Source: Deltaproteobacteria bacterium
GTDB lineage: Bacteria; Desulfobacterota; Desulfomonilia; UBA1062
Assembly (NCBI GenBank): GCA_018436855.1
Contig: JAHDKO010000016.1
Span: 7,286-71,285, forward strand
Length of the DNA: 64,000 bases
Direction of reading: 5' to 3'
Numbering within the stretch: the stretch's first letter is position 1; every line of letters starts with the position of its first letter. Made by a program: the position numbers and the translations under genes. Positions 23,765 to 62,248 of the stretch are shown here, in pieces. Below the pieces are notes generated by a model that saw nothing but the letters and a program-made list of their open reading frames with translations, had not been told where the DNA came from and made no database searches.

Positions 23765-23780
23765 AATTTGTCTCCATCAA

Positions 23781-27711: not shown

Positions 27712-27713
27712 GA

Positions 27714-27759
27714 GGGTATTATTCTTTGAGCGGGAAATAAAACGCCCTCAAAAAAAATA
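27714..27759 (-). promoter_or_regulatory. Conserved element A, copy 3 (abuts the trbC start codon, leaderless geometry)
   Basis: gggtattattctttgagcgggaaataaaacgccctcaaaaaaaat. In gene orientation AATAAT-N6-ATG. Confidence 0.5.
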
Positions 27760-27786
27760 TCCCTCAAAAAAGACGATCAGGTCTGC

Positions 27787-31752: not shown

Positions 31753-31763
31753 ACCTGACGCTC

Positions 31764-32195
31764 CTATTTTTTTACCGGAATCATCCCGGCAACCAACTGG
31801 TTTACAAACTCCCTGCATTCAGGTGCGACCTTGCCGTTTCTGACGCACCTGTCCATTATTTCTGCAAGAATCACAGTCTCCGGGGTCTGTGAATATCCCC
31901 AGGCATCATCCTTGCGCTCGGCCAAATACTCCCTGATTTCCTTGGGTAATTCAGAAACATCCATTTCATTGAAATATTCATCCTTCAAATTGCCTGATAA
32001 ATCCTTGTAGTGATCAGCATAATCTTTTATTTTCCCGCCATAACGGGAAAGATTATCAATATGATCACTCGTGGCCGTTCGCACTTTGTCTACACTCCAA
32101 CCGTTGTGTACCGCCCATAAATAGGCTCCAATGCACAGAACGAGAACAATCAGAATGGTGATCGGATCGAAGAAACCTCTATTGTTTGCGCTCAT
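31764..32195 (-). CDS. small membrane-anchored protein, hypothetical (TrbI-like position)
   Basis: 143 aa with an N-terminal TM helix. Confidence 0.35.
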   Translation of the reverse strand: MSANNRGFFDPITILIVLVLCIGAYLWAVHNGWSVDKVRTATSDHIDNLSRYGGKIKDYADHYKDLSGNLKDEYFNEMDVSELPKEIREYLAERKDDAWGYSQTPETVILAEIMDRCVRNGKVAPECREFVNQLVAGMIPVKK

Positions 32196-32199
32196 ACAT

Positions 32200-32243
32200 G
32201 TATTATTCTTTGGGCGGGAAATAAAACGGGAACAAAAAAAATG
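32200..32243 (-). promoter_or_regulatory. Conserved element A, copy 4 (5 nt from the start codon)
   Basis: tgtattattctttgggcgggaaataaaacgggaacaaaaaaaatg. Confidence 0.5.
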
Positions 32244-32321
32244 CCCCCTTTTGGGGAGGGGGCAAAAAGAGAAGATACGTGGTACGTGGTGAAACTATCT
32301 ATCATTTATTCTTGTTAAAAA

Positions 32322-34517
32322 CTAATCATCCGAACAAATCATGTCCTGACTTACTTCTTTTGCAAGGCTCAATCCGGTTACTGCCTCGGCAAAATTCGTT
32401 GTGCAAACACAGCCGCTTATCTGTGATTCCCCCTCTTCCAGGGGACAGGAATAAGAGCCATCCTGCATAAGCCTGCAAGGTTTGGAATATTTCGATACGG
32501 AAGATGTCTCAGCAAGATACTCCCCCTGCTGAGTAACCGCATTCGCGTTTGTTTTGAGGGTTTCAGCCTGAACCCGGCACTGATACTCGCAATCGCCGTA
32601 GCTTTTGCCTAAAATAACGTCTATTGAAGATCCTCCCATAACTGTATCGCTGAAGGTGGCATAAGCCATATTACCACTTGCGGAAAAAGTATCTTCGATC
32701 AATGCGTCCCTGGAAAGCATACCGGAATAATCATACTCGTTTCCGGTATTACAAGAATAGGTGCGCTTGACTTGCCATGCATCGACATTATTTGCGAGTA
32801 TTTCCGTGTTCCCGGTCTGTTGGTTCCTTGAAGTAATACTTCCTGTCTGATCCCAACACACATCGTATGTAGTCATCTCGCTTGATACGGTCTTGCACGT
32901 TTCGAGAGGGCTCAGGCCGGTACGATGCCCGTTGATCATTGTCTTAACACAGTTCCCTTGAACATCGCACAATTCCTCGTAAGTCAGAGTACACCCGTCC
33001 TTGTCCATTGATTTACAGGTGTCCACCGAGGACACATGACTATGGTCGGTGCCGATCTGCTCCGCGCCCTCGTGTGCCAAGTTGCAGTAATAATTATCGA
33101 CATAACCGGCCCAGAATTCCTTCCAGGTACAAACCAACGCGCCTGTGTTTTTTCCAATCATTGTAACAAAAGGATACTGGTCAACTCCCACTATTGACGT
33201 TCCGTTAGGTTTTAATCCTTCGGGACATTGAGAGCCAGTTCTGATCCCATAACTATCCCTCGCATAACATGTAGGAGGTTCCAAGGAATATCCATATGTT
33301 CCAGCTAATGACCAAGTACCACTACAACTTTGCTGTGTTGCTCCATTTGGATTACATGCCGGTGGAAAATTATCTCTTCCACCACCATACCACTCTCCAT
33401 ATACTCCTGTGCTGCATTGGTCATAAGCCCTAGCGCACAAATAGCTCACTCTCGATGATGTTAATTTTGTTTCCTCATGATAGGTATAACAGGTAATATG
33501 ACAAGACCACATTGTCGAATAATTAACATCATACCTTACAGTGCATGTTTTCTGCTCACTCCCGGTATCAGCCTGTTGCGTCAATGCCCACAATGAGCTA
33601 GAATCCCCTGACTGCCCGGTAAGCTCGTTGTCTCCCGCTACCACAAGAAGATCCGGGGAGGAATAATACTGTTCCGGGTTATCAATGCCTGAGCGGAAAT
33701 CATAGTTCAATTCCGATGTATCAATGTTTTTCGCGCCTGCACCGTCCGTTTTAATGCCGTAATAGGTAATCCTCATATTAGCCGCATCAGTGTTTGCGCG
33801 TTTTATTACAAGTTGAGCATCCGCTTTCTGAATGGCGAGAGCTATACCATCCCCGATGGCCTTGAGGATGGCATCGGTATTATTCCAGACAAGCATGGTG
33901 CCACAGCTATTGTTGATGCAGTAGCATCCTCCGACCTGGGTAGACGCAACCGAGTTTGCAGACACATTCAAATTATTATCAGCCGACCAAGAATAATATA
34001 AACAATTATTCCAGGTTCCGGCATCACAGGAAATAAACCCGTCAGAGCAAATCCCGGATACGTTTGTGGAAAACTGCTTGTTTTTGTCAAAGGTTCCGTC
34101 GAGATCACTGTCTAACCTGACAAACAGGGGATAAATATCACCCCCACCAGAAGGAGCAATGGTTATCTCAAGAAATGCCTCGCCCTGGTTGCTACTATTG
34201 AATACTCCTGAAACACTAAAACCCTTGACACAGATTTCAGGGCAAACCTGATTACAGGTGTTGGGGTCTTTGAAGGATTTCCCGGTAGAAGGACATTGGT
34301 ATGTTGACTTGGCATCATCCAACGGCATCAGCATGGTTCCATTCATGATAGGGTCGGTGAGATTCATGGTAATCCCCCCCGGTGATCCCCACTTGTTCAC
34401 AGCCTTAAAACCAAGCTCGTTCGCAGCCTGTTCCCCGGCAGCGATTTTATCACTCGCGTAGCAAAACATGGGTAATGCCATACAAACCAGGACTATGATC
34501 AATGCTCTCACACGCAT
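32322..34517 (-). CDS. Large Cys-rich secreted protein (731 aa), possible second adhesin or TraN-like protein
   Basis: Signal peptide MRVRALIIVLVCMALPMFCYA. More than 40 Cys. Sits between traC and traN. Confidence 0.45.
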   Translation of the reverse strand: MRVRALIIVLVCMALPMFCYASDKIAAGEQAANELGFKAVNKWGSPGGITMNLTDPIMNGTMLMPLDDAKSTYQCPSTGKSFKDPNTCNQVCPEICVKGFSVSGVFNSSNQGEAFLEITIAPSGGGDIYPLFVRLDSDLDGTFDKNKQFSTNVSGICSDGFISCDAGTWNNCLYYSWSADNNLNVSANSVASTQVGGCYCINNSCGTMLVWNNTDAILKAIGDGIALAIQKADAQLVIKRANTDAANMRITYYGIKTDGAGAKNIDTSELNYDFRSGIDNPEQYYSSPDLLVVAGDNELTGQSGDSSSLWALTQQADTGSEQKTCTVRYDVNYSTMWSCHITCYTYHEETKLTSSRVSYLCARAYDQCSTGVYGEWYGGGRDNFPPACNPNGATQQSCSGTWSLAGTYGYSLEPPTCYARDSYGIRTGSQCPEGLKPNGTSIVGVDQYPFVTMIGKNTGALVCTWKEFWAGYVDNYYCNLAHEGAEQIGTDHSHVSSVDTCKSMDKDGCTLTYEELCDVQGNCVKTMINGHRTGLSPLETCKTVSSEMTTYDVCWDQTGSITSRNQQTGNTEILANNVDAWQVKRTYSCNTGNEYDYSGMLSRDALIEDTFSASGNMAYATFSDTVMGGSSIDVILGKSYGDCEYQCRVQAETLKTNANAVTQQGEYLAETSSVSKYSKPCRLMQDGSYSCPLEEGESQISGCVCTTNFAEAVTGLSLAKEVSQDMICSDD

Positions 34518-34540
34518 GAACTACCTCCATTAATGTGGTT

Positions 34541-37015
34541 CTAGGCTTTATGGGCCATTGCATCTTTGCGTTTCTTCGCAAGTATCCCTATTGCCTCGTC
34601 ATATGAATGGCCTTCATCAACAAGTTTATTCAATTTAGCGATATCGTTCGGATCGGACGTATAAAGGTAGTAACTATACGGGTCAACCACCAGCCTCGCC
34701 ACTCCGCTTCCTCCTGGAGTTTCCATAAAAATTTCCGAGTAATTGCCTTTCCGGGATCGAACGCTTTCCAGAATTTTTGTGACAAACTGGTTATATGCGA
34801 GAATCTTGTTTTCTACCGCCCATCCATAATCATGTGAAGCCAGAAGGAACTTGAATGCTGAGTTGCCAAGAATCGCATCCCCGACTCTTCCGAACCCCTG
34901 GAAGTCTTTGATTGACTGCGTAATCGTCACCACCGATCCGTTATATTTTCTAGCCCTGCGGTATGCTTCCTCAATAACTTTTCGCAACATTGCTCCCTGG
35001 GCTGTCTCGTCACCGTTCAAAAACTGCCAGGACTCATCGAAAACAACAACTTTTTTTATAGCGCGATCCGACAGATAGAGGTCCTGGGTCATATAGTTCA
35101 TGAGCTGCAAGATCACGACATTGAACAGTTCCTTGATAGGCTTCAGTTCTTCCAGTTCCAGAACAACAAGTTTATCCTGAGCGATATTGAGCGTTGCGGG
35201 ACCGGAGAACCAGCGGCCATAAACACCGTTCTTGGTAAAATCCTGCATATTGAACGCAAGCTGACGAGCCAGGACAATGGTTTCGTCATTCAGATTCTCG
35301 GTTATACTGGCAAGATACTGAAAAACATCGTCTATTTCAGCGTTCTGCCCGTTCTTATCCCATGCCGCACGACACGCGCTCTTGATCAGTGTCATTTCAG
35401 TTTCCGAGGGCTCAGTGTCCGTGGATGAGAAAATCATCTCCGAAACAATGGTGGACAGAACAGGAAGCTCGGAATCGATGTCTTCAATATGCGTAAACGG
35501 ATTCAGACAAATCCCGGAATCCTGCTTGAACGATATGTATCGCCCTCCAACCACTTTGCACAGTTTCTCATATGATCCACCAACGTCGATGATTCTGATC
35601 GCCGCGCCCGATGCCAGATAGTTCGTTACCAAGTAATTCATCAGAAACGATTTTCCCGATCCCGATTCAGCCGCAATCACGAGGTTCTGATTATTTGCGC
35701 TCTTGTCAAAAAGATCAACACCGACAATCTGCCCTTTTCTTCCCAAGAACATCAGCACCGGACTTGATGTACCCCTGAAATCACCCTGAACAGGCAGGAA
35801 CTTCACCGCTGAACTTGCGTCACAGATCATGTCCCGACCAATCATTTCGACATTATCGCCCACGTTATATAGTCCGAAGGGAAGACTAGCGAGAAACATA
35901 ACATCAAGAAGCCCTTTCTCTTCCTGCATCACGGCTCCCTTGGACTCCCAAAGTCTTCGCGTCCGCGCAAATGCCTGTCCTGCCTCGTCATCATCCTTCG
36001 ATATGATCCACATCGTAGGAATCACGCGCACAAAAGCTGTTCCCTTCTCGATCTCATCAACTGCCCACAGGTACTCGCTCTGTTTCCGCGCCAGTGTCGG
36101 AGCAAGAGATCCCGCAAACTCCTGCTGTAGCAAGAAGTTGCATTTTGCATGAAGTTTCGGCTTGATCTTTTTATCGATCACAATATTCACGCACAACAGA
36201 AATGGAACCTGAATCTGATTGGTGTCAGAGCGCATACCCCAGATATCTCCACAAACATAATTCATGAACAAAACATTCAATTCTGTGGGCATTTTTTTGG
36301 GAGACAGGCATTTTAATGTTTTTTCGCCAACCTTCAGGTTACTCCAATTGTTTGTTATGGGCGTATCTCCCAAAACGATCTGATCCTTGATCTCCCGAGA
36401 ATCATCATACATATCTGAAACCTCATGGAAATCACGGTCATTGATCAGCTCGGCCATTGTTCTGATAAGCTCTTCTGGCTCAACAAAAGACGGGAACAAC
36501 TGACATCCTTTTAAAATCTCGGCAACAGCATCCCGAAGATCCCTTGGATTGGTTTTGATGGCGTGTTTTCTGTCGAATTTCATTGTGACGAACAGCCGGA
36601 AATTGCGAACAGGTATTCCCTGACACTGAGGAAGACCATCATGAGCCTCCTGGTAAAACTCTGCAGTACCCTCGATAACACCTCTCAGTAACATGTTACG
36701 CCTTGTTGCTGCCTTATCCGTTTTATAAGCATCGAGCATGTGCTTATAGTGAGAATCCGCATAGAGGATAAACTGCAAACAAGTTCCCTCGGGAAGTCCC
36801 ATATTCAGCATCCCTTCAAGCATTTCAAAGGTATCGTTGCCGGCATAAATAAGGGGGGAACACTCCCACAAATACCCAACCGTATCGTCCTGGTTGAAAT
36901 ATAATTTGGTTTCAGGATCATATGCGACATACGGCAAAAACCGGCTGAACCGATGCCGTTTCACCATTGTCTTCATCCTGACCTTGGATAATCTGCTAAC
37001 GACATTGCCCAACAT
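34541..37015 (-). CDS. traC: TraC (VirB4-family ATPase)
   Basis: 824 aa. N-terminal SRFLPYVAYD is similar to F TraC. Walker A AAESGSGKSF and Walker B region VVVFDESW. Confidence 0.9.
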   Translation of the reverse strand: MLGNVVSRLSKVRMKTMVKRHRFSRFLPYVAYDPETKLYFNQDDTVGYLWECSPLIYAGNDTFEMLEGMLNMGLPEGTCLQFILYADSHYKHMLDAYKTDKAATRRNMLLRGVIEGTAEFYQEAHDGLPQCQGIPVRNFRLFVTMKFDRKHAIKTNPRDLRDAVAEILKGCQLFPSFVEPEELIRTMAELINDRDFHEVSDMYDDSREIKDQIVLGDTPITNNWSNLKVGEKTLKCLSPKKMPTELNVLFMNYVCGDIWGMRSDTNQIQVPFLLCVNIVIDKKIKPKLHAKCNFLLQQEFAGSLAPTLARKQSEYLWAVDEIEKGTAFVRVIPTMWIISKDDDEAGQAFARTRRLWESKGAVMQEEKGLLDVMFLASLPFGLYNVGDNVEMIGRDMICDASSAVKFLPVQGDFRGTSSPVLMFLGRKGQIVGVDLFDKSANNQNLVIAAESGSGKSFLMNYLVTNYLASGAAIRIIDVGGSYEKLCKVVGGRYISFKQDSGICLNPFTHIEDIDSELPVLSTIVSEMIFSSTDTEPSETEMTLIKSACRAAWDKNGQNAEIDDVFQYLASITENLNDETIVLARQLAFNMQDFTKNGVYGRWFSGPATLNIAQDKLVVLELEELKPIKELFNVVILQLMNYMTQDLYLSDRAIKKVVVFDESWQFLNGDETAQGAMLRKVIEEAYRRARKYNGSVVTITQSIKDFQGFGRVGDAILGNSAFKFLLASHDYGWAVENKILAYNQFVTKILESVRSRKGNYSEIFMETPGGSGVARLVVDPYSYYLYTSDPNDIAKLNKLVDEGHSYDEAIGILAKKRKDAMAHKA

Positions 37016-37510
37016 TTACATACCTCCAGGGTTTTTTCTACTTCTGTCAAAAGTCCCGTAAACCCACTTGGGCGATCCATCCATGAAATAAACATATCGC
37101 CAGCCATAAAACTGGTTATCCTCCCCGGTGTAACTCAGGAGTAATATTCTCACGACATTCGGAGGTGCAATTATCGGAGTTTCCGGCTCTTCGATCAGTG
37201 CGGTCAACTCCCTGAAAAGATTTTTCTGATACACGCTTTCCGGGGCTCCGCTCTGACCATTCATTCCCTCATGAACCTTGCCGTTCGCAGAGGACTTGTC
37301 CACCTTCTCACATTTGCCGTCCTTGCAAAGCTCCAGATTTGTTTCGTCCTCGCCCGACAGGCTCCGTTTGTACGCCTCGGTAGTGCTGACACACGCCCCC
37401 TTATTTGTCTCAGGGCAGCTAAACTCGCTGTTGTACGGATTGAAAATTGCCGCGCACCCGGAAATAGATACGCAAAAGCCAATAATTGCGATTAATTTAA
37501 TGTATTTCAT
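37016..37510 (-). CDS. traV: TraV-like outer-membrane lipoprotein
   Basis: Lipobox ISGCAA. 164 aa. Position between traB and traC. Confidence 0.55.
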   Translation of the reverse strand: MKYIKLIAIIGFCVSISGCAAIFNPYNSEFSCPETNKGACVSTTEAYKRSLSGEDETNLELCKDGKCEKVDKSSANGKVHEGMNGQSGAPESVYQKNLFRELTALIEEPETPIIAPPNVVRILLLSYTGEDNQFYGWRYVYFMDGSPKWVYGTFDRSRKNPGGM

Positions 37511-37521
37511 TTCTCCCCCTC

Positions 37522-38760
37522 CTAAATCTCACCGATTGTGTTGTCGAGATCCTTGATCGAAAGCTCCACTCCCTTGGAAATGATCATCTCAACCTTCTTA
37601 GCTGATCCAATCTCGATTCCCGGCACCGCCTGGGATGCCAACTCAAGATAAAATTTCCGAAGATCATCGGCCATCGTGGAGACACCCCCTCCGACACCAG
37701 CACGAATAAGATTGTTCGTATCAGTATCGGTCCATAACTCGGTCGTGCCATAAGCACCGCTGGAAACAGTTGTGGATGCTTCCTGAAATGCATCTCCAAC
37801 ACCGCCAAAGAATCCAGCCAAGGCCGATCTTGCCAGCGTAGAAGCCAAGTTGGGAGCGACAACATTACCCTTCAGCCCGACCTTGCCGTCCTCGTCCTGT
37901 AAGAATCCATTGATCGGCTGATCAATCACGGCTGTTCCGTTCGACGCTATGCAGGACAGTGTAGTCAGTCGTACATGAACCCGCTCATCCCCCAGATTCC
38001 CATGCCCTTCCGCAATAACGAAGCAGCCTTTGAGATTTGCCTTCACACTGTTTGGTAGAACAGCAAGGTCTTTGATTCTCAGAAGAAGAGGTACAGGATT
38101 ATTGGCACCCGAAGATGTCGTTGGAGCTATAGCCCCGGTCAAAAGAGTTGCCTTCATAAAAGAAGGGGGCAAATACACGCTCGGCTTTTTTTTTGAGGCA
38201 TCATCCTTGGGTTCATTGCTTACCGCAACGCTTACGATTCCAATTCCACCAACAACTTTCTTCTGTACCACCTCGGGAACAAAAGTCTTTTCACCCTGCA
38301 CACTGGAAAATCTCGGAGGATTCTTACCCTGCGCGTTCGCTTCTGCCAGCGGAATAGGAGGGGGAGGAAATGGCAAAGAAACAGTATCATCCTTTTTCTT
38401 TCCATCAGAACCATTCCCCTTGTCCTGATCCTTCGCCTGTGCCTTGGCCTGCGTTTCCTGGGCCTTAACGACCTTATTAAGCTCTGCCCGGAGTGCCGCA
38501 AGCTCGTCGTTCTGTTTTCCAATCTGCTCTCTGGTTTGCGCGAATAAGGTTTTCTCCGTATTCTTCGCGTCAAGGCTGATTTTGGAATATGTCTTTTCCC
38601 CATTCTTTTTGGAAGGAGTATTGCCATCGTGAGTAACTTTGTATCCCCACAATCCCAGAATGATTACCAGTGAGATCACACCTACCACAGCAATCTTGCG
38701 CTGGTTATCGGGGTCCATCTTGCTCCAGAATGTTTTTATCTTGTCCCAAAACGTACCCAT
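37522..38760 (-). CDS. traB: TraB (VirB10 homologue)
   Basis: N-terminal TM helix, Pro-rich linker (PFPPPPIPL) and a C-terminal beta-rich domain. 412 aa. Confidence 0.65.
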   Translation of the reverse strand: MGTFWDKIKTFWSKMDPDNQRKIAVVGVISLVIILGLWGYKVTHDGNTPSKKNGEKTYSKISLDAKNTEKTLFAQTREQIGKQNDELAALRAELNKVVKAQETQAKAQAKDQDKGNGSDGKKKDDTVSLPFPPPPIPLAEANAQGKNPPRFSSVQGEKTFVPEVVQKKVVGGIGIVSVAVSNEPKDDASKKKPSVYLPPSFMKATLLTGAIAPTTSSGANNPVPLLLRIKDLAVLPNSVKANLKGCFVIAEGHGNLGDERVHVRLTTLSCIASNGTAVIDQPINGFLQDEDGKVGLKGNVVAPNLASTLARSALAGFFGGVGDAFQEASTTVSSGAYGTTELWTDTDTNNLIRAGVGGGVSTMADDLRKFYLELASQAVPGIEIGSAKKVEMIISKGVELSIKDLDNTIGEI

Positions 38761-38761
38761 C

Positions 38762-39556
38762 TTAATTTTCCTCCCCTGCCACTTTTACAATGAATAACCG
38801 GGCAATCTGATTCTTGGTTATCATGTGTCTATCAAGTGAAATCGCAACAGGCTTGTTCACCAGAGATGTGATAAGAAAATCCTTCTCGGATAGCTCACGC
38901 TTACCATTGCCAACCAGGGTCACATGATATTCCATGAGCGTGATACCTTCTCCTGGAATGTAAATATCCCTGGTTGCAGTTACCCGATAAACACCATCGA
39001 TCTCATGAACCTTGCTGTCCTTGTGCTTCTTGACCTCATAACGATACGGTATATTATTCTGGTAAACGCTCTTGATCAGCGATGTCACCTTTTTTTCGAA
39101 CGGAACCCCGCTGAATATTTCCAGGTTTTCCTTGATCCGGTCCTTCTTTGATTCCAAATAAATTGTTTGTGCCGGAACCTTCAAAGGTACGGCGATTATC
39201 GTATAGACGGAATTATCAGCGCAGATAATATAAAACTCTGTCGGTATATTGGCATATTCCCGCTCCTGAGTAGTTGGGTCTTCCGCTGAATAAAACTTGA
39301 TAAATGCATTCTTTCCGTCAACCTTGACCATGACACCCTTTTCCTCGGAGTACACCACGTCCTTGATCTGCCCACCCGTGGATACAACACGATTCGTGTC
39401 CATGCTCGACATGGTGACTCTCGTCACTATTTCGGGTTTTACGGTCGTTGTATGATTGCCCTCAATCTCCTTTGCCCATACACCGTGATGGCAGGAGATC
39501 ATAAAGACAATGATGAACATTATAAGAGAAACAACCTTTACGATCCTATTCAACAT
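38762..39556 (-). CDS. traK: TraK (VirB9-like)
   Basis: Signal peptide. 264 aa. Position between traE and traB. Confidence 0.55.
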   Translation of the reverse strand: MLNRIVKVVSLIMFIIVFMISCHHGVWAKEIEGNHTTTVKPEIVTRVTMSSMDTNRVVSTGGQIKDVVYSEEKGVMVKVDGKNAFIKFYSAEDPTTQEREYANIPTEFYIICADNSVYTIIAVPLKVPAQTIYLESKKDRIKENLEIFSGVPFEKKVTSLIKSVYQNNIPYRYEVKKHKDSKVHEIDGVYRVTATRDIYIPGEGITLMEYHVTLVGNGKRELSEKDFLITSLVNKPVAISLDRHMITKNQIARLFIVKVAGEEN

Positions 39557-40100
39557 ATCCCACCCCCGTTACAAAAAACTTACCATTGATAATCCGATAC
39601 CCGATAACATATGACATGGCACCATCTTCTACCGTGGTATTGGATGCTGTTTTCTTCCCTATGCCTCTGACAAGTATTTCCTTTTTATCCCGCCGCACCT
39701 CAAACTCTCGGGGATAGAAAACACTCGTCATCTCCAGCCGAATGATTTCAGCCTTGATCTTCTCCAGATCACTACTCAATTCAGCATAGTATTCCGGTGC
39801 AGCCAGTTCCTTGATTGCCTCAAACTGTCCGTTCACCGTTCCTGGAGTATATGTGGTGAACAACGAGCATGCATACCGTGTGAAAAGTTTCAGATATCCA
39901 TCGTTCGCATCATTGTTCGTAATCTCGATACGTTCATCAACAACAGGGGGTAATATAACAACCCGCTGCGATGTCGTAGCCTTGTATGCACAAAACGATG
40001 AAATGCATACGGCTATGGACAATGCTATCACGGCTGTTTTCATGATAGTGTTTGCCATTCCCATGTTTGCCTTTTCCTCCATATACATATCGATTTTCAT
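39546..40100 (-). CDS. traE: TraE (VirB8-like)
   Basis: 184 aa with a single N-terminal TM helix. Position after traL. Confidence 0.55.
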   Translation of the reverse strand: MKIDMYMEEKANMGMANTIMKTAVIALSIAVCISSFCAYKATTSQRVVILPPVVDERIEITNNDANDGYLKLFTRYACSLFTTYTPGTVNGQFEAIKELAAPEYYAELSSDLEKIKAEIIRLEMTSVFYPREFEVRRDKKEILVRGIGKKTASNTTVEDGAMSYVIGYRIINGKFFVTGVGYVE

Positions 40101-40104
40101 ATCC

Positions 40105-40377
40105 CTATTCCTCGTACCTGTCTTGAAAAGCCCCTGGATAATTAGGGAGTTCCTTTAATCCGAGTAAATAAATAAGGTTATTTGCAAAACCTTTCGGATT
40201 CTTGCTCTTGAACACCCGGTATCCCCACGGCACAGCGATCACAGCAATCCACCAGAACCATCCACCAAAAATCAGGGCAAGGGAAAGGCAAGCAAATATA
40301 ATTCCTACTTCGTCAAGCTCAAACCACAGAACCTGCACAGGAGACGATAAATACTGCGGAAATCTGTTATTTGCCAT
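40105..40377 (-). CDS. traL: TraL (F-type)
   Basis: 90 aa with one central TM helix. Typical size and position between the pilin gene and traE. Confidence 0.5.
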   Translation of the reverse strand: MANNRFPQYLSSPVQVLWFELDEVGIIFACLSLALIFGGWFWWIAVIAVPWGYRVFKSKNPKGFANNLIYLLGLKELPNYPGAFQDRYEE

Positions 40378-46063: not shown

Positions 46064-46086
46064 TCCATATGTTATTTCAGAACCAT

Positions 46087-55083: not shown

Positions 55084-55395
55084 ATGAAGCCAAAAGAGTA
55101 TATCAGAAAATACAAAATAAAGCAGAAACAAATGGCGAAAGACCTGGATATAACGCCGGGTTATCTGTCCGGGATCATCAATGGGACGCGAACGCCTTCT
55201 CTCGACCTCGCTTGTCAGATCGAGAAATACTTCAATTATGAGGTATCGCGCCTGGAGTTGTTGTATCCAAATGAAGATTGGAACATTCTCAAGAACCCGA
55301 TTCCTCTTCCTTCACCGTCATCCGCTCCCGCGACAATCATCTCCAGTGACACAAAGAAAAAAGTGCTGGACATCATCAGGGGATCTAAGGATTGA
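55084..55395 (+). CDS. XRE-family HTH transcriptional regulator
   Basis: QKQMAKDLDITPGYLSGIINGTRTPSLDLACQIEKYF is a canonical XRE HTH. Confidence 0.6.
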   Translation: MKPKEYIRKYKIKQKQMAKDLDITPGYLSGIINGTRTPSLDLACQIEKYFNYEVSRLELLYPNEDWNILKNPIPLPSPSSAPATIISSDTKKKVLDIIRGSKD

Positions 55396-55862
55396 AGCCC
55401 CTGCCCCTTCTCCCCATGTTCGCGTTTTGGCTTATATCCTCGGGGTTTTGCTTCGAGCAGGCAGGCAGCTATTATAATATTTCGCCCATCCTGCTCAGTG
55501 CAATATCCTGGGTGGAGAGCAACCATACGCCAGGGGCGATAAACCACAACCGCAACGGGTCCGTTGATTGTGGACACATGCAAGTCAACTCTTTCTGGGC
55601 AGATAAAATCGGCCCGGATTATCAGTATCTAAAAGGCAAAGAACCCGAGCACTCCTGTTATCAAACATATGTCGGGGCATGGATACTGCGTCAATGCATT
55701 GATCGATACGATCAGACATGGGATGCAGTAGCCTGCTATCATGCAGGGCATGGTCTGAACAGACTCAAGGGTGCATCAAAAATACGCGCAGAAAAATATA
55801 TCGGCAAGGTCAAGGAGGCTATCAGAAAAAACAAAATTATCACAACGCTCGTGAAGGAGTAG
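55392..55862 (+). CDS. Lytic transglycosylase (VirB1/P19/F-orf169-like)
   Basis: Signal peptide and an SLT catalytic region LLSAISWVESNHTPGAINHNRNGSVDCGHMQVN. Confidence 0.7.
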   Translation: MKPLPLLPMFAFWLISSGFCFEQAGSYYNISPILLSAISWVESNHTPGAINHNRNGSVDCGHMQVNSFWADKIGPDYQYLKGKEPEHSCYQTYVGAWILRQCIDRYDQTWDAVACYHAGHGLNRLKGASKIRAEKYIGKVKEAIRKNKIITTLVKE

Positions 55863-56747: not shown

Positions 56748-57035
56748 ATGCATAGCAAATCCGAGAGTGTGGTGGCATTCATCAAGGAGTTGACAGAAAA
56801 GCATCAGATGGAAAAAATTGTCCTTATGTCCCGTATTCAGGAATTAGAAAAAGAAAACCAGCAGCTCCGGGAACAATCCGAACCATCGCTGCTTTTAAAC
56901 AAGGGGGTTATTCCCTTTATCCAGTTCTCGTTCAAATTTATCGAGGATATCATGAATACTCTCGATGATGAATCCCGCGCCAAAATACAGGAGATATTAA
57001 ACAAAGAGGACGAACCGGATCATTCCTCTGTCTGA
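56748..57035 (+). CDS. coiled-coil hypothetical protein
   Basis: GGAGGGTATC RBS. Heptad-like QELEKENQQLREQ. Confidence 0.4.
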   Translation: MHSKSESVVAFIKELTEKHQMEKIVLMSRIQELEKENQQLREQSEPSLLLNKGVIPFIQFSFKFIEDIMNTLDDESRAKIQEILNKEDEPDHSSV

Positions 57036-57721
57036 TTATTTTTTTTGTTTTTTTTGAGAATTAATATTTCGCCCATTTCACGTGCTATTTCCCTGATATG
57101 TTCTTTTTTAACAAATGTATTTGTTTCAACGATACTTTTCACTCCGACAATTCTTTTAATGCATTTGAAATCGCCCCATGGATAATAATATCTCAATAAA
57201 GCGGGAGCCATACTGATTGTGTTCCTGCTGACAAATACCGAGCACGGCCTGAGCACTTTATCGACATAAAACATCATGGAGCTTCCGCAACTATATCCAT
57301 CCCGCGAGTTCCATCGATGTCTCATCATGATTGCTACCCATCCGTTCAAATCCACGTGTATTTCCTGGGCGGTAATGCGTACAACGGTTCCCCGCACGGC
57401 TTCATGGACCTTCTCCCTCCACCGCCTATAATTATAATCGTCCTCGATATACGTCAAACAATCCGGTAATCGCTGTCGCACCGCCTTTGTTACCTCCGCT
57501 GGCAACCTATCAAACTCTATGGGTATATAAGAGTGATTCCTATAAAACCATGCCTTGACAGTACCATTGTTAATTTCCGCATACGCCTCACCCTGGAAAT
57601 GTTCGGAAAGCACTGTTGCCAAAGTAAGTTCCAGACCGTCCTTGACAATTTGAGGGTTGGTGTTTCTCCATTTGCACACATCCGTTATGAATGATTCAAA
57701 TGTAGGTCCTGCGGCTTCCAT
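57020..57721 (-). CDS. hypothetical protein (233 aa)
   Basis: ORF divergent from 57792 with shared element A copies between them. Confidence 0.4.
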   Translation of the reverse strand: MEAAGPTFESFITDVCKWRNTNPQIVKDGLELTLATVLSEHFQGEAYAEINNGTVKAWFYRNHSYIPIEFDRLPAEVTKAVRQRLPDCLTYIEDDYNYRRWREKVHEAVRGTVVRITAQEIHVDLNGWVAIMMRHRWNSRDGYSCGSSMMFYVDKVLRPCSVFVSRNTISMAPALLRYYYPWGDFKCIKRIVGVKSIVETNTFVKKEHIREIAREMGEILILKKNKKNNQTEE

Positions 57722-57733
57722 CGTATTATTTCC

Positions 57734-57790
57734 TTTTTTGTCGTTTTATTTCCCGCACAAAGAATATGTTCTTTGAGGGGGAAATAAATT
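57734..57790. promoter_or_regulatory. Conserved element A, divergent pair (copy 9: one minus-oriented and one partial plus-oriented copy, back to back)
   Basis: ttttttgtcgttttatttcccgcacaaagaatatg followed by ttctttgagggggaaataaattg. Serves divergent genes 57020..57721 and 57792..58067. Confidence 0.5.
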
Positions 57791-57791: not shown

Positions 57792-58067
57792 ATGAAAAAA
57801 CAAATCCTCGCAGTGTTGACACTATTGTTTCTCGTATCGATTATCGCAGCCATTGGGTGTGAGAACAGTATTCGTGAGTATTTTCCGAGGTTTGATGGTA
57901 ATCTTTATGCTTCGGGGAGTATTTTTCTTTTTGGGTTCACATATGCCATGGTCGTTCGGAACTTTATTATTTTTTTTATTTCAATGGCAGCGGCCATTGC
58001 TACACCGTGGGTTGCCGAGTGGTTTCACTCTCACTGGCCGTACATAATCCACATAATGACAAATTAG
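57792..58067 (+). CDS. small membrane protein
   Basis: Three hydrophobic helices. ATG 57792. Confidence 0.45.
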   Translation: MKKQILAVLTLLFLVSIIAAIGCENSIREYFPRFDGNLYASGSIFLFGFTYAMVVRNFIIFFISMAAAIATPWVAEWFHSHWPYIIHIMTN

Positions 58068-58077
58068 GAGGATTGAC

Positions 58078-58821
58078 ATGGGTAAGGGCTCTCTTTCATC
58101 GGCGGCAGTAATACCCATTGGTGACTCGAAAAAAACTACTCGACGGCTCCCGCATCTGATTGACGCGATGAGCGATATTCAACAGTATTATATTTTCGAA
58201 TCAACGGGTCAGGAAATACCTCATGAATTTCTCACCATAAGAGATTCTCTCGGATTTTTTAACACAGGTTTTGGAGCCGGTTTTTTTGAGGGGTTAATGT
58301 TTTCCATCCTGCTCACGATATGTATGCCACTCGTAATCGACACACATGCTATGAACGTCCTGACTACGGCGATCCCGTTTTTGGGCTCTCCCTGGTTTCT
58401 CATTTTCTTTTCCATAACCCCGGTTCTCTTCGCATGTGCGCTGTGCTGCTGGATGGGTAAATACTATGTTGGCAGCATAACCAAACGGGCAATCGATAAT
58501 TTATTGCTTGGCCGCGCCACTTCCCTGTTTCTCACAGGTTTTTTGCTGTTCACCATCCTTACAACAGTGGGTGCGTTGTTAACTCCTGCCAGGGCATACA
58601 GTGCCGGCATGTATCTGGCGGGAGTGTTTCCTGCTGGATCTATGATTCCGCAGACTGTGTATGATATTTTGCTGAACCTTCCTCCGATCATGGTGCGCCG
58701 GGCTATTCATCAGGGGATCATATTAATAACAGGTGTTGCGCTTCCCTACCTCACAATATGGGGAGTCGTTTATTTTCGAGATCGTTATATTTCGTACCAA
58801 AATTCCAAAATAGGTCACTAG
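58078..58821 (+). CDS. polytopic membrane protein (possible TM domain of a split type IV coupling protein)
   Basis: 247 aa with 5-6 predicted TM helices, immediately upstream of the ATPase. AGGAGG RBS. Confidence 0.45.
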   Translation: MGKGSLSSAAVIPIGDSKKTTRRLPHLIDAMSDIQQYYIFESTGQEIPHEFLTIRDSLGFFNTGFGAGFFEGLMFSILLTICMPLVIDTHAMNVLTTAIPFLGSPWFLIFFSITPVLFACALCCWMGKYYVGSITKRAIDNLLLGRATSLFLTGFLLFTILTTVGALLTPARAYSAGMYLAGVFPAGSMIPQTVYDILLNLPPIMVRRAIHQGIILITGVALPYLTIWGVVYFRDRYISYQNSKIGH

Positions 58822-58830
58822 GAGAATAAC

Positions 58831-60171
58831 ATGTTTAAAAGAAAATCTGATCGCATTCTTGTCGGGACCGGGAAGATGCTCAATAAATTTGGGAAAGAGC
58901 TTCCCAGGATTATGTCGTTGGGAATTCCTAATGCATATCGCAAATCGCACATGTTCTGCTTCGGAACCACCAGGGTAGGAAAGACAAAGCTGATTGAAAC
59001 CCTCATTGAACAAGATATACGCGCAGGCAGATCGGTACTGCTTCTCGACCCAAAGGGTGACATTGAAATATTCAGCAAGATCGTCCAGGTTGCATCAGAG
59101 GTTGGTCGTGAAAACGAGATCACGCTGGTCACTCCTATATTTCCGAATTATTCCGGGAAACTCTCGCCATTGACGTATTACTACATGCCCGAGGAAATTG
59201 TAGGTCATATCACGAGTGGTATTCAGGCCAAGGAAGAGTTTTTTGTCAATATTGCATACGAGACAACGCTTGTGATCGTGCTCTCGCTGTTGCTGTTTGC
59301 CGAGCACGAAGGTAAGCCCTACCGGATCAGCATACAGGAGATTAAGGATCGCGCATCATACCAGGGGTTGTGTGAGTTGCAGGACCGCTTAAACAATCTC
59401 CCCTACTCCGACAAGAAAGCGGACATTCTCTCTACTCTCGATCAGGTATTATCCTCTCCGCAGGACTATTTTTCCAAAGTATCATCTTCTCTGCGTACCA
59501 TGCTCACCACATTATCGACCGGCAGCATGAGGCAGATCATTGGTGGTACAACCCAGAACGAGTTTATTCATGCGCTTGAAGTCGGAAAAAGCGTGATCAT
59601 GGTTGTTCAGTCCGGTGCTCTTCTTACCGGGAAAACATCGCACACAGTATCCAGAATGCTCGTATCGATGATCCAAACATTTGCCGGCAGGCGGTTTGCC
59701 TCTGGCCGCACTGTCACCCCCCCATTGTGCGTGTACATGGATGAGGCCGCAAACCTCATGTATCATGGTGTCGAGGATTTGTTCTCTAAAGCAGGAGGCG
59801 CAGGGGTTTGGCTGCATGCGTTTTCACAGTCTCTTGCCGATCTTGATGATGCCATTGGCCCCGCTGCTGCCCGGAGAATTCTCGATAATACCAACACCAA
59901 AATTTTTATGCGTGTCAATGATCCCAATACCAGTAAGTACATCTCGGAGTACGCTGGAGACATCAATCGCTTTTCTCCAGTGCTTTCACTCGGCGGCGGG
60001 ATGAACATCAGAGAAGTTGATGAGCCCTTGATTCGCCCGGAAGAGGTCCAGAACCTAAAAGAAAGGGAGTTTTATCTTTTCTCGTTCGACGGCGCGTTCA
60101 AGGGGACAGTACGCACAGTCAAATCTCCCAAGCAAATAATCGAATTTCCACAGGTGGAGGTGAACCAATGA
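58831..60171 (+). CDS. traD: FtsK/HerA-superfamily ATPase, probable type IV coupling protein (TraD/VirD4-like) soluble domain
   Basis: Walker A FGTTRVGKTKL near the N-terminus and Walker B VYMDEAANL about 255 aa downstream. That spacing is typical of T4CPs. No N-terminal TM region. Confidence 0.5.
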   Translation: MFKRKSDRILVGTGKMLNKFGKELPRIMSLGIPNAYRKSHMFCFGTTRVGKTKLIETLIEQDIRAGRSVLLLDPKGDIEIFSKIVQVASEVGRENEITLVTPIFPNYSGKLSPLTYYYMPEEIVGHITSGIQAKEEFFVNIAYETTLVIVLSLLLFAEHEGKPYRISIQEIKDRASYQGLCELQDRLNNLPYSDKKADILSTLDQVLSSPQDYFSKVSSSLRTMLTTLSTGSMRQIIGGTTQNEFIHALEVGKSVIMVVQSGALLTGKTSHTVSRMLVSMIQTFAGRRFASGRTVTPPLCVYMDEAANLMYHGVEDLFSKAGGAGVWLHAFSQSLADLDDAIGPAAARRILDNTNTKIFMRVNDPNTSKYISEYAGDINRFSPVLSLGGGMNIREVDEPLIRPEEVQNLKEREFYLFSFDGAFKGTVRTVKSPKQIIEFPQVEVNQ

Positions 60172-61634
60172 TATTTTATATCCTTATGATTCCACTTATT
60201 ATATTGTTAATTTACCTCATCTTCTGGGGTGATAAATTATTCCCTGATAAGCGGGTACAGCAAGCCGAAACCGGGGCAGTGACACTTGAAGAATTGGCAA
60301 ACAAGCTCTGGCTGAAACGAGAACGGGAGCTTGAGGATGAGTTGGCATCAAAAACCAAAGAGTCTATAATCACGCTCGATCCTGTCGTTCCTGTCGAGGC
60401 TGTTCCTGAGCCCGAGCAGCCTACTCCCAAGGAATCACCTACCCCCGCAAAACCGAAACCGGATGTTCCTGCTCAACAAGTGGATCAGGAAGTGAGTTCT
60501 CTGGTTCCCGAGATTCCTCATGCAGAAAACAATAAATGGAATCATCAGGAGCTGATCGACTTTGAAAATAACTTCGTCAGTCAATACAGGAATATCATTG
60601 CACAGTCTCAGCACATCATTCCGCTGCAAAAAGTGATGGAGATTCTTGATACTTATGGAGATCAGCCTTCCATTGTCTCTATGAATGATGATGATGAGTA
60701 TAAAATTCTTGGAAGTCATTACGCCACTTTCACCCAGATAACATTACTGCAACACTCTCTCAATGTTGTCTATGAGCTTGGAAAAATAATCGAAGAATCC
60801 GGCTCTCGTGATGCGAAATATTCCATGGGAAAATATATTCTTATGTGTCTTGGACACGACATCGGCAAGATCACCGAATTTCTGTCCAGTGATTATATTA
60901 CTGGAAATCATCCCATTATTTCTGCGGGTAAAATGATGGGCATACTTCCCCCAGGCACTCCGGGCAGGGATGATATTATAAACGCGATCAGGAATCATCA
61001 TGTAAGGAGTGCCAAAAATAAATCCACAATTTTACTCAGACAGGCCGATTCCAGGGCAAGAGAATACGAAGCTGAGTCCGTATCCGTTGAAAAGGCCGTC
61101 CTGGTGCGAGATCTCCTGACAGACGACCCAAACCCTGAAGCAACGAAAATTAAAAAGAAGCCCAAAATCACTGAGGCCGTTGATTTGTCTTGGGTTGATT
61201 GGGACGATGTTATTTCAAAAATTGATGAAAATATAAATGTTCCTAATGAAAACAAGTGGGTAAACGCAATTTCGGTTAGCGACGGGTACATTTACATAAA
61301 GCCTGTTCTCATCAATAAAATTATATGGCAGCAGGCAAAAGAAAAAGAAATTACCGAGTTCACGGTTTATTCCATAAAGGACAGGGAGCGGTCGGACGCT
61401 GTATCAAATTCTGTCGCAAATTATTTTCGGGATCAGTACGCTATATCCGAAACCATAAATAGACCTTATTTCACCCGTAAATTCAAACTGGTAGACAAGG
61501 ATAATAATGTTGTAAGGTCAGGTTTTTATACAGCGATCAAGGCTGAAATGTTTAAAACCCCCCTCGATGAACTAGAAGAAAGAAAACTCAATCTCGAATG
61601 GCTCATGAAAATAAAAAACGTTATTCCTGGCTGA
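60168..61634 (+). CDS. HD-domain protein with N-terminal TM helix, candidate MOB_H-type relaxase
   Basis: HD motif LLQHSL...CLGHDIGK (H...HD.GK). An NHHV triad. N-terminal MIFYILMIPLIILLIYLIF is a TM helix. Pro-rich linker. Adjacent to the T4CP as traI-traD are in SXT-like elements. Confidence 0.45.
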   Translation: MIFYILMIPLIILLIYLIFWGDKLFPDKRVQQAETGAVTLEELANKLWLKRERELEDELASKTKESIITLDPVVPVEAVPEPEQPTPKESPTPAKPKPDVPAQQVDQEVSSLVPEIPHAENNKWNHQELIDFENNFVSQYRNIIAQSQHIIPLQKVMEILDTYGDQPSIVSMNDDDEYKILGSHYATFTQITLLQHSLNVVYELGKIIEESGSRDAKYSMGKYILMCLGHDIGKITEFLSSDYITGNHPIISAGKMMGILPPGTPGRDDIINAIRNHHVRSAKNKSTILLRQADSRAREYEAESVSVEKAVLVRDLLTDDPNPEATKIKKKPKITEAVDLSWVDWDDVISKIDENINVPNENKWVNAISVSDGYIYIKPVLINKIIWQQAKEKEITEFTVYSIKDRERSDAVSNSVANYFRDQYAISETINRPYFTRKFKLVDKDNNVVRSGFYTAIKAEMFKTPLDELEERKLNLEWLMKIKNVIPG

Positions 61635-61676
61635 TTTTTTTTGAGGGCGTTTTATTTCCCCCTCAAAGAATAAGTC
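61635..61676 (+). promoter_or_regulatory. Conserved element A, copy 10
   Basis: ttttttttgagggcgttttatttccccctcaaagaataagtc, directly after the stop of the HD-domain gene. Confidence 0.5.
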
Positions 61677-61746
61677 AATTACAGAGTGTTTTAAAAGGTG
61701 TGTTTTTAAAAAGGTGCTTCATAAAAAAAATTGGAAGGAGATTATC

Positions 61747-62244
61747 ATGGCAGAATACATTCAGTTGGTAGGGGTTCCAAAAAGCATTCCCAATGAGGTG
61801 GTGATTCCCATCCCGTCGAATGTCCCCCCTATTGTGCGGCGTATCGTTTACGGCAAATTGCAGTCGGCACTCAAGCGAAACACCAGGGTTGTGTATCAGG
61901 ACATGAACGAAACCAAGATCGCCCTGGACCTTGCCATTCAGATGGAGAAGGCTACTTCGCTGCTTTTGGGCCGTGTCGGCATGAACCCGGAGGCTGTGGT
62001 CCCATTCATTCGCCAGTATTTCACAACGCTCGAAAGCATGGGCGAAATGACCAAAGCCGCATGCAAAAAGGCTGGCATTGATTACAAGGAGCCCAAGGGC
62101 CTTGCAATTGCCAGAAAAATAAATACCGAGGGGCAGGCTCCCGCAGATGATACGGAATCTGTCGAGACAGAATCTGCCGAGAAATCTCAGCCTGCCGAAA
62201 CGGAGTCCAAAGTTAAGGAGAAGCAGACAAAGGCAGCGGGGTAG
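61747..62244 (+). CDS. hypothetical protein (165 aa), acidic C-terminus
   Basis: GGAAGGAG RBS and ATG 61747. Confidence 0.45.
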   Translation: MAEYIQLVGVPKSIPNEVVIPIPSNVPPIVRRIVYGKLQSALKRNTRVVYQDMNETKIALDLAIQMEKATSLLLGRVGMNPEAVVPFIRQYFTTLESMGEMTKAACKKAGIDYKEPKGLAIARKINTEGQAPADDTESVETESAEKSQPAETESKVKEKQTKAAG

Positions 62245-62248
62245 TACC

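Follow-up and report, generated by a model that had tools for sequence, protein, structure and literature searches.

A stretch of 64,000 nt from a Deltaproteobacteria bacterium (GTDB lineage Bacteria; Desulfobacterota; Desulfomonilia; UBA1062), covering positions 7,286 to 71,285 of the 72.6-kb contig JAHDKO010000016.1 (assembly GCA_018436855.1) and called the window here, encodes a complete F-type transfer apparatus. At positions 57792-61634 it also contains a four-gene operon, in which a coupling ATPase without transmembrane (TM) domain is accompanied by a separate membrane protein and by an HD-domain protein with its own membrane anchor. We propose that this operon is the substrate-processing and coupling unit of an F-type plasmid that lacks a canonical relaxase, and that the tethered HD protein would act as a nickase and stand in for the relaxase, a reading for which we see the balance as even.

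The four genes of the operon follow each other tightly:

57792..58067, plus strand: small protein (about 91 aa) in which hydropathy shows two TM segments, first gene of the operon, conserved in contigs L002 and L011 and in the BuS5 plasmid
58078..58821, plus strand: TM247, a polytopic inner-membrane protein of 247 aa, as judged by hydropathy and by homology to the fusion protein P0101
58831..60171, plus strand: soluble TraD/VirD4-type coupling ATPase (type IV coupling protein, T4CP) of 446 aa without TM domain, as judged by Pfam, NCBIfam, Walker motifs and hydropathy
60168..61634, plus strand: membrane-tethered HD nuclease-like protein of 488 aa, the gene of which overlaps the T4CP stop by 4 nt

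Homologues of the trio of TM247, ATPase and HD protein, in the same order, are encoded in L002 (69%, 87% and 57% identity) and also in numerous further contigs, and the three are therefore real genes and not chance open reading frames (ORFs). No near-identical DNA was found among known plasmids, genome species representatives yielded no relatives when scanned with either the HD protein or its alignment, and the proteins of the module had no match in PHROGs.

A coupling protein divided between two genes

The 446-aa ATPase exceeds the Pfam gathering cut-offs of three coupling protein families, namely TraG-D_C (63.2 against 22 bits, 2.8e-17), TrwB_AAD_bind (45.3 against 20.5 bits, 7.3e-12) and T4SS-DNA_transf (38.7 against 20.1 bits, 7.2e-10); HerA/DUF87, with 17.2 against 23.2 bits, stays below its cut-off. 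A Walker A motif (GTTRVGKT) is present at residue 45 and a Walker B motif (LCVYMDE) at residue 299, and hydropathy analysis revealed no N-terminal TM segment. The initial annotation of the window, which had described a T4CP without TM segment from the spacing of the Walker motifs and had named HerA/DUF87 as the alternative, was thus correct. The best NCBIfam match is SXT_TraD (TIGR03743, 1.5e-46), followed by conj_TOL_TraD, and the TraD families nearest to the ATPase are those whose partners are HD-based MOBH relaxases; at 159.1 bits against a curated cut-off of 366, SXT_TraD is its nearest family but the ATPase is not a member. The match starts at position 168 of the 636 profile positions, and therefore the N-terminal membrane region of TraD is missing. 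An N-terminal TM domain, which is present in most T4CPs and used as a criterion for them, is lacking here, which places the ATPase, by its sequence, in the recognised class of T4CPs without TM domain (PMC7431656).

TM247 consists of a polar N-terminal tail of about 60 aa and at least four hydrophobic segments. It had been described as encoding only TM helices, which holds for the hydrophobic part and overlooks the tail. No Pfam or NCBIfam family matched TM247, and it shows no similarity to the two-TM N-terminus of canonical TraD. Comparison with DUF4400/TIGR03747, families of membrane partners whose genes adjoin MOBH-type traD, gave hhalign probabilities of at most 0.6%. A split-off TraD N-terminus and a TraJ/DUF4400 homologue were rejected as identities for TM247 because no such similarity was found.

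The division between ATPase and membrane protein is not confined to the window. By tblastn, the ATPase falls into a clade whose members, coupling proteins without TM domain, have about 440-490 aa and are encoded on plasmids of at least nine genera, including those of Desulfosarcina, Geobacter, Pelobacter, Trichlorobacter, Campylobacter, Aliarcobacter, Nitrosophilus and Thermovibrio. Directly upstream of the T4CP, the plasmids of this clade and metagenomic contigs encode either a homologue of TM247 or, in the same position, a protein of about 240-280 aa; homologues were found in L002, L011, L012, L022, Campylobacter, Nitrosophilus and Aliarcobacter. A split T4CP, with a TM-less ATPase and a separate upstream membrane protein, is thus kept across Desulfobacterota, Campylobacterota and metagenomes, as the initial annotation had supposed for the window. 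Since TM-less T4CPs that rely on a separate membrane protein are already a known class, the split described here is a variant and not a new kind.

A natural fusion joins all three parts. P0101, encoded in contig L007 by a single uninterrupted ORF, is a protein of 1327 aa in which a TM247 homologue (residues 1-224, 35% identity to TM247, E 2e-40) comes first, then the coupling ATPase, a pair of TM helices and the region of the HD family, all in one polypeptide.

In the window itself, the TM247 and ATPase genes are in the same frame and are parted at 58819-58833 by a TAG stop codon and 9 nt (GGTCAC TAG GAGAATAAC ATG). Read-through of the TAG would give a fused protein similar to P0101; in relatives the two genes use other frames, and the arrangement may be a coincidence. 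A recent nonsense mutation as the origin of the split was rejected because relatives hold the two genes in different frames or overlapping.

Linkage of the HD gene to the coupling protein

A gene of the HD family lies directly downstream of a TM-less T4CP in 14 independent contexts, namely in the window, L002, L022, BuS5, C. iguaniorum, Nitrosophilus, Pelobacter, Trichlorobacter, Geobacter, Aliarcobacter, L011, L012, L013 and L024. In L007 (P0101) the two are fused, in L023 the HD gene is found at a distance of four small genes from the T4CP, and L025 is too short for linkage to be judged.

The BuS5 plasmid contains a second, truncated copy of a CPBP protease gene, of pieces of the TM protein gene and of the 5' end of the T4CP gene (L018:1317-3019, compared with L003:7853-10320), which adjoins copies of a Tn3-family transposase and a recombinase. 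The TM247 and HD protein genes of this plasmid each seem to be broken into two ORFs, which may reflect decay.

Architecture and conservation of the HD protein

A TM helix at residues 1-24 of the HD protein is recognised in the sequence. The AlphaFold model, which was built from 111 sequences (mean predicted local distance difference test score, pLDDT, of 84.9), shows the TM helix at residues 2-24, then a conserved helix (40-65) and a proline-rich, disordered linker (66-120), which are followed by an HD domain made up of helices only (124-318) and by an alpha/beta domain (340-488). An earlier model from six sequences was dropped (pLDDT 49.5). The K/R-rich sequence that follows the TM helix indicates that the HD domain is cytoplasmic, and the same arrangement of an N-terminal hydrophobic helix and a K/R-rich sequence was found in 113 of the 155 retrieved family members; other members contain two TM helices or a YdjM multi-pass domain. 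Foldseek searches against the PDB and viral models retrieved generic HD folds only and gave no match for the C-terminal domain.

The motif of the HD protein comprises H196, H230-D231-x-G-K234, H248, H277-H278-V279 and D294. The only HD model that it passes is the generic PF01966 (26.7 bits against a cut-off of 22), which also matches 65 of 66 family members. A word-indexed search had found six relatives, and an exhaustive profile search extended the family to 576 cluster representatives (E<=1e-3), of which 385 reach E<=1e-10; members are mostly 400-600 aa long and align over both the HD and the C-terminal regions. Twelve positions are invariant in all 111 aligned sequences (S168, H196, H230, D231, G233, K234, H248, H277, H278, R298, E301 and N357), D294 is conserved in 110, and position 243 is Tyr in 100 and His in three. 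The HD protein is therefore predicted to be an active dinuclear HD enzyme under strong constraint.

Affiliation of the HD domain

When 66 members of the family were scanned, they matched 68 NCBIfam families, of which 25 are listed and considered here, and 11 Pfam families. The curated models with the most matches were the HD domain of Cas3'' (cas3_HD, TIGR01596), with 54 members (best 1.2e-10), Cas10/Csm1 (TIGR02578) with 38 (best 4.4e-8), the generic HDIG family with 38 and Cas3g with 14. Among PDB sequences, the best hit of the family profile is the generic HD hydrolase 2pq7 (7e-7); next in rank are two Cas10 proteins (1.7e-4 and 2e-3), which are annotated as single-strand-specific DNases. 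H...HD..K...H...HH...D, the motif set of the family, is known from Cas3-type nucleases. In its sequence the HD domain most resembles the single-stranded DNA nucleases of the Cas3''/Cas10 type without being a curated member of these families, as the window protein reaches 13.6 bits against a curated cut-off of 43.45. The HD motif, the HHV triad and the N-terminal TM helix that the initial annotation had pointed out are all present; HHV corresponds to the HH of the Cas3-type motif and not to the 3H motif of a relaxase.

The combination of an HD-like metal site and a neighbouring traD-type gene had also led to the suggestion that the protein is a MOBH relaxase. The hallmarks of this group are a TraI_2 domain, an alternative 3H motif before the first histidine of the HD motif, the HXnHDXnHXnD motif and usually a TraI_2_C domain (Heilers et al., PMC6736028). 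Neither PF07514 (TraI_2) nor TIGR03760 matched the window protein at E<=0.1, while a Geoalkalibacter MobH used as positive control scored 7.9e-69. PF07514 is absent from the 11 Pfam families matched by the 66 members, no Pfam match to TraI_2_C was obtained, and no MobH model is among the NCBIfam families listed. The alternative 3H motif (S-E-x-H-H-H), which reads PASESHHHRGAGGLLRH in MOBH sequences, is absent from the HD family; the corresponding segment is G-D-C-P-S-V-V, followed by about 25 residues up to H196 and without a His triad. The HXnHDXnHXnD motif and the lysine are present (H196, H230-D231, K234, H248 and D294), but they are common to the whole HD superfamily and do not discriminate.

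A highly diverged, genuine MOBH relaxase, which derives from TraI_2 and acts like TraI of SXT or of the gonococcal island, could still be concealed behind such scores. In its favour, hhalign comparison of the family profile with an alignment of 81 TraI_2 sequences gave a probability of 86% (E 5e-6, 203 columns), the T4CP that accompanies it belongs to the TraD type of SXT/TOL, and adjacency of mobH and traD exists in pGSUB1. In addition, a preprint proposes short MOBH-like HD nucleases that act with a separate helicase (PMC12934698), and a RecD2-like helicase is encoded downstream of the module in L002. Domain controls decide this question: the HD part alone reached 90% against TraI_2, and residues 320-488 alone reached 0.3%. 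On this ground, the continuation of the MOBH alignment over the C-terminal domain was rejected, and the similarity to MOBH is therefore that of the shared HD core only. The SExHHH sequence before the first histidine is replaced by C-P-S plus an insertion, the family retains HH ligands that have no counterpart in the aligned MOBH sequences, a TraI_2_C domain is missing, and the gene order is reversed. We consider a diverged MOBH relaxase to be very unlikely, and on profile and motif grounds the HD protein is placed outside MOBH.

Relaxases in the window and in related plasmids

The F-type transfer apparatus of the window includes TraG, TraH, TraF, TrbC, TraU, TraW, TraN, TraC, TraB and TraK, and further genes of the window encode TraT, a lytic transglycosylase and a partition protein of the ParM type:

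20495..40377, minus strand: F-type mating-pair formation genes for TraG, TraH, TraF, a signal-peptidase homologue, TrbC, TraU, TraW, TraN, a Cys-rich exported protein of 731 aa, TraC, TraB and TraK
inside 20495..40377, minus strand: homologues of the TraV, TraE and TraL genes of BuS5, identified by comparison with the BuS5 plasmid
32322-34517, minus strand: the 731-aa protein, with a signal peptide and many cysteines, kept inside the mating-pair formation operons of BuS5, C. iguaniorum and L013
about 2281 to <1, minus strand: type IA topoisomerase, running off the left end of the window

No recognised relaxase was detected with Pfam and NCBIfam in any non-overlapped ORF of at least 90 aa in the window, and at this sensitivity the earlier statement that the window has no other relaxase candidate holds. 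In PLSDB/MOB-suite, non-mobilizable is the type given to eight related plasmids, those of BuS5, C. iguaniorum, C. upsaliensis, Nitrosophilus, Pelobacter, Trichlorobacter, Geobacter and Thermovibrio, although mating-pair formation of the F type (MPF_F) is recognised by MOB-suite in four of these eight. Seven of them carry the HD module, and the Thermovibrio plasmid pTHEAM01 carries only the T4CP clade. The only plasmid of the group typed as mobilizable is pACIB of Aliarcobacter (NZ_CP043858.1, 237 kb), via a MOBV relaxase. The complete annotations of pCIG1485E and of the BuS5 plasmid by the Prokaryotic Genome Annotation Pipeline contain no relaxase.

The core that is shared by the window, pCIG1485E and the BuS5 plasmid comprises TM247, the T4CP and the HD protein, together with the lytic transglycosylase (SLT), the mating-pair formation genes and the 731-aa protein. 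The latter, which is apart from the HD protein the sole conserved protein of relaxase size without known function, matched no Pfam, NCBIfam, PHROG or PDB entry. It was rejected as an alternative relaxase, because its signal peptide and its cysteine richness, which resembles that of TraN, indicate export; within this F-type lineage, it probably serves as a TraN-like, so far uncharacterised component of the cell surface or periplasm. Since the 731-aa protein is exported, the HD protein is the only conserved cytoplasmic enzyme of the core without an assigned role.

An accessory function would also account for such a position. The HD protein could be a nuclease or hydrolase for clearing stalled DNA, for exclusion or for DNA release, with the true nickase located elsewhere, for example in a type IA topoisomerase or a hypothetical protein, or the plasmids could belong to the type IV secretion systems without a mobilization gene (MOBless T4SS) that do not conjugate. 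MOBless T4SS are common and have been argued to be mostly non-conjugative (PMC3158045), and many hypothetical proteins remain on these plasmids. Type IA topoisomerase genes recur as well (loci L026:8407-10353 and L010:1-738 besides that of the window): in addition to the copy at the left end of the window, one adjoins the Trichlorobacter module, and in pTHEAM01, which has no typed relaxase, a genuine one lies directly downstream of the TM-less T4CP, in the slot of the HD gene. The view that the Thermovibrio topoisomerase is a clean replacement of the HD protein is weakened by the co-occurrence of both in the window and in Trichlorobacter. Type IA topoisomerases are known as accessories of conjugative plasmids and not as origin nickases. 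The elements considered here are plasmids that carry complete F-type gene sets, TraT, partition functions and genes like those of leading regions (SSB, i.e. single-stranded DNA-binding protein, anti-restriction-like and primase), as is typical of self-transmissible plasmids, and the translational coupling and fusion of the HD protein to the T4CP argue for a core role. We therefore judge an accessory role, or a system that does not conjugate, to be unlikely. As a side effect, the topoisomerase gene at the left end of the window makes the plus-strand ORF 132-857 spurious.

Cyclic di-GMP genes around the module

Components of cyclic di-GMP (c-di-GMP) metabolism recur around the module. A GGDEF domain is inserted in the HD-family proteins of C. 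iguaniorum (6e-34) and Nitrosophilus (2e-38); its GGEEF motif is intact in both, and that of C. iguaniorum also has an RxxD I-site. In Campylobacterota, a small HD_5 protein is encoded upstream of the T4CP; it shows HHE..DGSGY (HHE.PDGSGY) and has YYAN in place of the HD dyad, and is thus a degenerate HD-GYP-like protein. EAL proteins are encoded among or close to the tra genes in C. iguaniorum, Trichlorobacter and Thermovibrio, the latter with GGDEF and EAL genes upstream of the T4CP, and PilZ genes adjoin the HD gene in L014 and L023. These genes are located as follows:

L004:8292-8873 and 10238-12640
L008:4719-5279 and 6638-8929
L026:5687-6960
L010:11450-13489
L014:2510-3778
L023:9442-9861

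Such a neighbourhood would fit an HD protein that is a membrane-anchored nucleotide phosphohydrolase or second-messenger enzyme, which gates the ATPase in response to signals such as c-di-GMP and does not act on DNA. The GGDEF insertions, the HD_5 protein upstream of the T4CP and the EAL and PilZ neighbours all point in this direction. The HD domain itself does not: it contains neither an HHE nor a GYP motif, HD_5 matched neither the window protein nor appears among the Pfam families listed for the 66 members, no model of an HD-GYP protein or cyclic-nucleotide phosphodiesterase is found among the 25 NCBIfam families considered, and the best HD matches are Cas3''/Cas10 nucleases. The HD-GYP identity that had been raised as a counter-possibility is thus not borne out. 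Moreover, the HD protein of the window has no GGDEF domain, and the c-di-GMP enzymes are separate domains or genes that persist in Thermovibrio where the HD protein is missing. On this basis a signalling enzyme appears improbable, and the c-di-GMP parts suggest a separate regulatory layer on the coupling complex. Their recurrence suggests, from gene content, that transfer is under c-di-GMP control.

A proposed function for the operon

Under the reading that the operon couples and processes the transfer substrate, TM247, possibly joined by the small two-TM protein, would form a polytopic membrane subunit on which the soluble, TraD-type hexameric ATPase docks. The HD protein would be held at the same membrane site by its own TM helix and the long flexible linker. 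Its cytoplasmic part would consist of a dinuclear HD nuclease of the Cas3''/Cas10 type and the family-specific alpha/beta domain. We infer that the substrate is DNA and that the enzyme would make a single-strand cut at the origin of transfer, and perhaps also the terminating cut. Owing to the tether to the ATPase, the free DNA end would arise at the mouth of the translocase, so that a covalently attached and exported pilot protein would not be needed for recruitment, the tethered nickase taking its place. The classical pilot-protein model cannot apply to such an enzyme, because the TM anchor makes its export with the DNA implausible. Gene structure, domain identities, the invariant active site of the family, the linkage, the fusion and the lack of recognised relaxases are observed; the physical complex, the nicking at an origin, a hydrolytic chemistry and the retention of the protein in the donor are inferred.

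A wider claim is that a whole clade of F-type plasmids transfers without an exported pilot relaxase: a Cas3/Cas10-like HD nickase in the donor membrane, coupled and in some cases fused to the ATPase, would cut the origin hydrolytically and pass the free end directly to the translocase. To close the strand again in the recipient, host enzymes or recombination and exonuclease functions encoded on the plasmid would be used. We put this forward tentatively and rather doubt it. These plasmids encode exonuclease VII-like, Bet, Dna2/Cas4, RecD2-like and SSB functions, the connection of which to re-circularisation is speculation. If true, pilot-less transfer would represent a new MOB class with a new logic of substrate recruitment and would explain part of the MOBless T4SS problem.

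Several observations weigh against the HD protein as a tethered nickase. No relaxase-family signature of any kind was detected in it, its own matches to Cas3 and Cas10 stay below the curated cut-offs, and its C-terminal domain has no recognised DNA-binding fold in Foldseek searches of the PDB and viral models. No origin of transfer was identified in the window. The linkage to the T4CP has exceptions, since the family member in L014 has no T4CP in the 446 nt of upstream contig available and Thermovibrio has a T4CP of this clade but no HD-family gene at all, and the triple fusion P0101 is a single observation. A true TM anchor precludes the export with DNA that is known from classical relaxases and leaves recircularisation in the recipient unexplained. 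Finally, the recurrent c-di-GMP genes around the module are compatible with a signalling role. The earlier proposal of the HD protein as candidate relaxase is supported insofar as the protein is locked to the T4CP on plasmids without a recognised cognate relaxase, and no relaxase signature was detected in the protein; the proposal is plausible and unproven, and a relaxase-like DNA-processing enzyme is the leading hypothesis for this protein.

Comparison with known systems

MOBH relaxases, as found in the gonococcal island, SXT/R391 and IncA/C, share with the HD protein an HD-type metal centre with HD..K and a gene next to a TraD-type T4CP. TraI of the gonococcal island, a MOBH protein of 850 aa, associates with the membrane via an N-terminal amphipathic helix and cleaves without a detectable covalent intermediate (PMC6736028). 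Cleavage of this kind is the chemistry that a tethered nickase would require, and it is a partial precedent. Unlike MOBH proteins, the HD protein has a true TM helix instead of an amphipathic helix, extra HH ligands and a different C-terminal domain. With about 490 aa it is shorter than the retrieved MobH proteins (mostly 550-700 aa) and than TraI of the gonococcal island, and its gene follows that of the T4CP, whereas traI precedes traD in MOBH systems.

Cas3''/Cas3 and Cas10 have the same motif set, are the curated HD models with the best scores over the family of the HD protein, and also pair an HD nuclease for single-stranded DNA with a DNA motor, either split or fused (Cas3''/Cas3'). The HD proteins of Campylobacterota, in which the HD domain is followed by a GGDEF/palm domain, resemble Cas10 in this respect. 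In contrast to Cas3 and Cas10, the module has no CRISPR context, its motor is a hexameric T4CP translocase and not a superfamily 2 helicase, and the HD protein has a membrane anchor and a unique C-terminal domain. RNase Y consists of an N-terminal TM helix, a coiled or disordered region and an HD endonuclease that acts on single-stranded nucleic acid. The HD protein has a similar layout, and two family members weakly match TIGR03319, but it has no KH domain and differs in context and partner.

The division of the coupling protein has a known counterpart in TraG/TraJ of R27, a related two-partner case. T4CPs without TM domain that act with a separate membrane protein are a recognised class, for example TraJ/TraI of pIP501 (PMC7431656, PMC12857230). 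The window resembles pIP501 in that a soluble coupling ATPase has a separately encoded membrane partner; it differs in being a Gram-negative F-type system with a polytopic partner of about 250 aa, a third, tethered enzyme subunit and a natural fused form.

The 'Hodor' preprint proposes, from computation only, a short MOBH-like HD nuclease with a separate helicase as the relaxase of conjugative elements that likewise have no canonical one (PMC12934698). This proposal is a further partial precedent for the HD protein. Hodor proteins match TIGR03760 by HHsearch and belong to megaplasmids of Bacillota with a VirB4/VirD4 system. The passages of the preprint considered here describe neither a membrane anchor nor T4CP coupling for the nuclease.

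In L002, which is the closest of the long relatives, the region 3' of the module (L002:15223-20907) encodes a primase-like protein (BT4734-like_N and PriCT_2), an RCC1-repeat protein, a helicase of the RecD2/YrrC type and an uncharacterised protein of 266 aa. A separate helicase near the HD nuclease parallels the Hodor proposal. The counterpart of this region in the source contig falls beyond the right end of the window.

Mobility prediction rests on finding a relaxase. Eight of the nine complete plasmids considered here are scored as non-mobilizable despite a full F-type machine and a T4CP, and the ninth is typed only via its MOBV relaxase. If the HD nuclease processes DNA, a plasmid group of sulfate and metal reducers and of Campylobacterota is mis-scored, and a new relaxase-like class with hundreds of members would have to be added. 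MOBH TraI has raised the question of how transfer proceeds when relaxase and DNA form no covalent intermediate, and the link between nuclease and translocase would make this question directly testable. Even if the HD protein is regulatory, a three-part coupling complex with a fused form offers a handle on the anchoring and control of T4CPs. In either case, the module bears on the problem of MOBless T4SS (PMC3158045) and provides a concrete gene to test.

Other features of the window

A 20-nt element, TTTATTTCCCnCnCAAAGAA, is present in 11 copies in the window, against 0.18 expected:

minus strand: 4308-4327, 17678-17697, 27722-27741, 32206-32225, 41384-41403, 43484-43503 and 57769-57788
plus strand: 45471-45490, 46106-46125, 57745-57764 and 61651-61670
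57745..57788: two divergent copies, which together form an inverted repeat in a 67-bp intergenic region
61651..61670, plus strand: copy at the boundary where the four-gene operon gives way to the next gene

All copies are intergenic and point to the following gene, with a distance of 11-48 nt to the start codon in the eight cases in which the gene was identified. The element, which is absent from L002, is probably a plasmid-specific promoter, operator or 5'-leader signal, as its positions suggest, and it may be read by a sigma-like protein (55866-56705) or by the NusA-like protein (57020-57721). The inverted repeat upstream of the operon was rejected as specific evidence for an origin of transfer, since it consists of two copies of an element that stands at 11 operon starts. 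The region 43450-46130, between the ParM gene and the rightward genes, has a low GC content (38%), several inverted repeats and three copies of the element. It could hold a partition site, a replication origin or an origin of transfer; nothing specific was identified there.

Further genes flank the operon:

55392..55862, plus strand: lytic transglycosylase (SLT; PF01464, 9.3e-15), a conserved upstream member of the module
57020..57721, minus strand: 233-aa protein with a NusA-like nucleic-acid-binding region (TIGR01953 NusA, 8.6e-10, far below the cut-off)
61714..62244, plus strand: 176-aa protein downstream of the HD gene, with homologues in L002, Nitrosophilus and BuS5

The SLT gene precedes the genes of the TM protein, the T4CP and the HD protein in BuS5, Pelobacter, Trichlorobacter, Geobacter and L002. 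The NusA-like gene is divergent from the operon and is kept in L002, L012 and BuS5; its product is a possible accessory or regulatory factor, given the nucleic-acid-binding region. In BuS5, the homologue of the 176-aa protein adjoins the NusA-like gene.

At 50967-51899 and 49759-50319, both on the minus strand, the window encodes an exonuclease VII large-subunit-like protein, in which only the central part of XseA is matched, and an adjoining RF-1-domain protein. Both genes are kept in L002 and L022, and BuS5 has XseA-like and XseB proteins. The module is followed in the window by genes for a membrane protein of the VKOR family with a CxxC motif toward its C-terminal end (62147-63193) and for a family-4 uracil-DNA glycosylase (63163-63780), both of which are kept in L002 (L002:12123-13651). 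The BuS5 plasmid has a VKOR-family gene at the matching position (L003:11975-12886), for which tblastn gave no link to that of the window.

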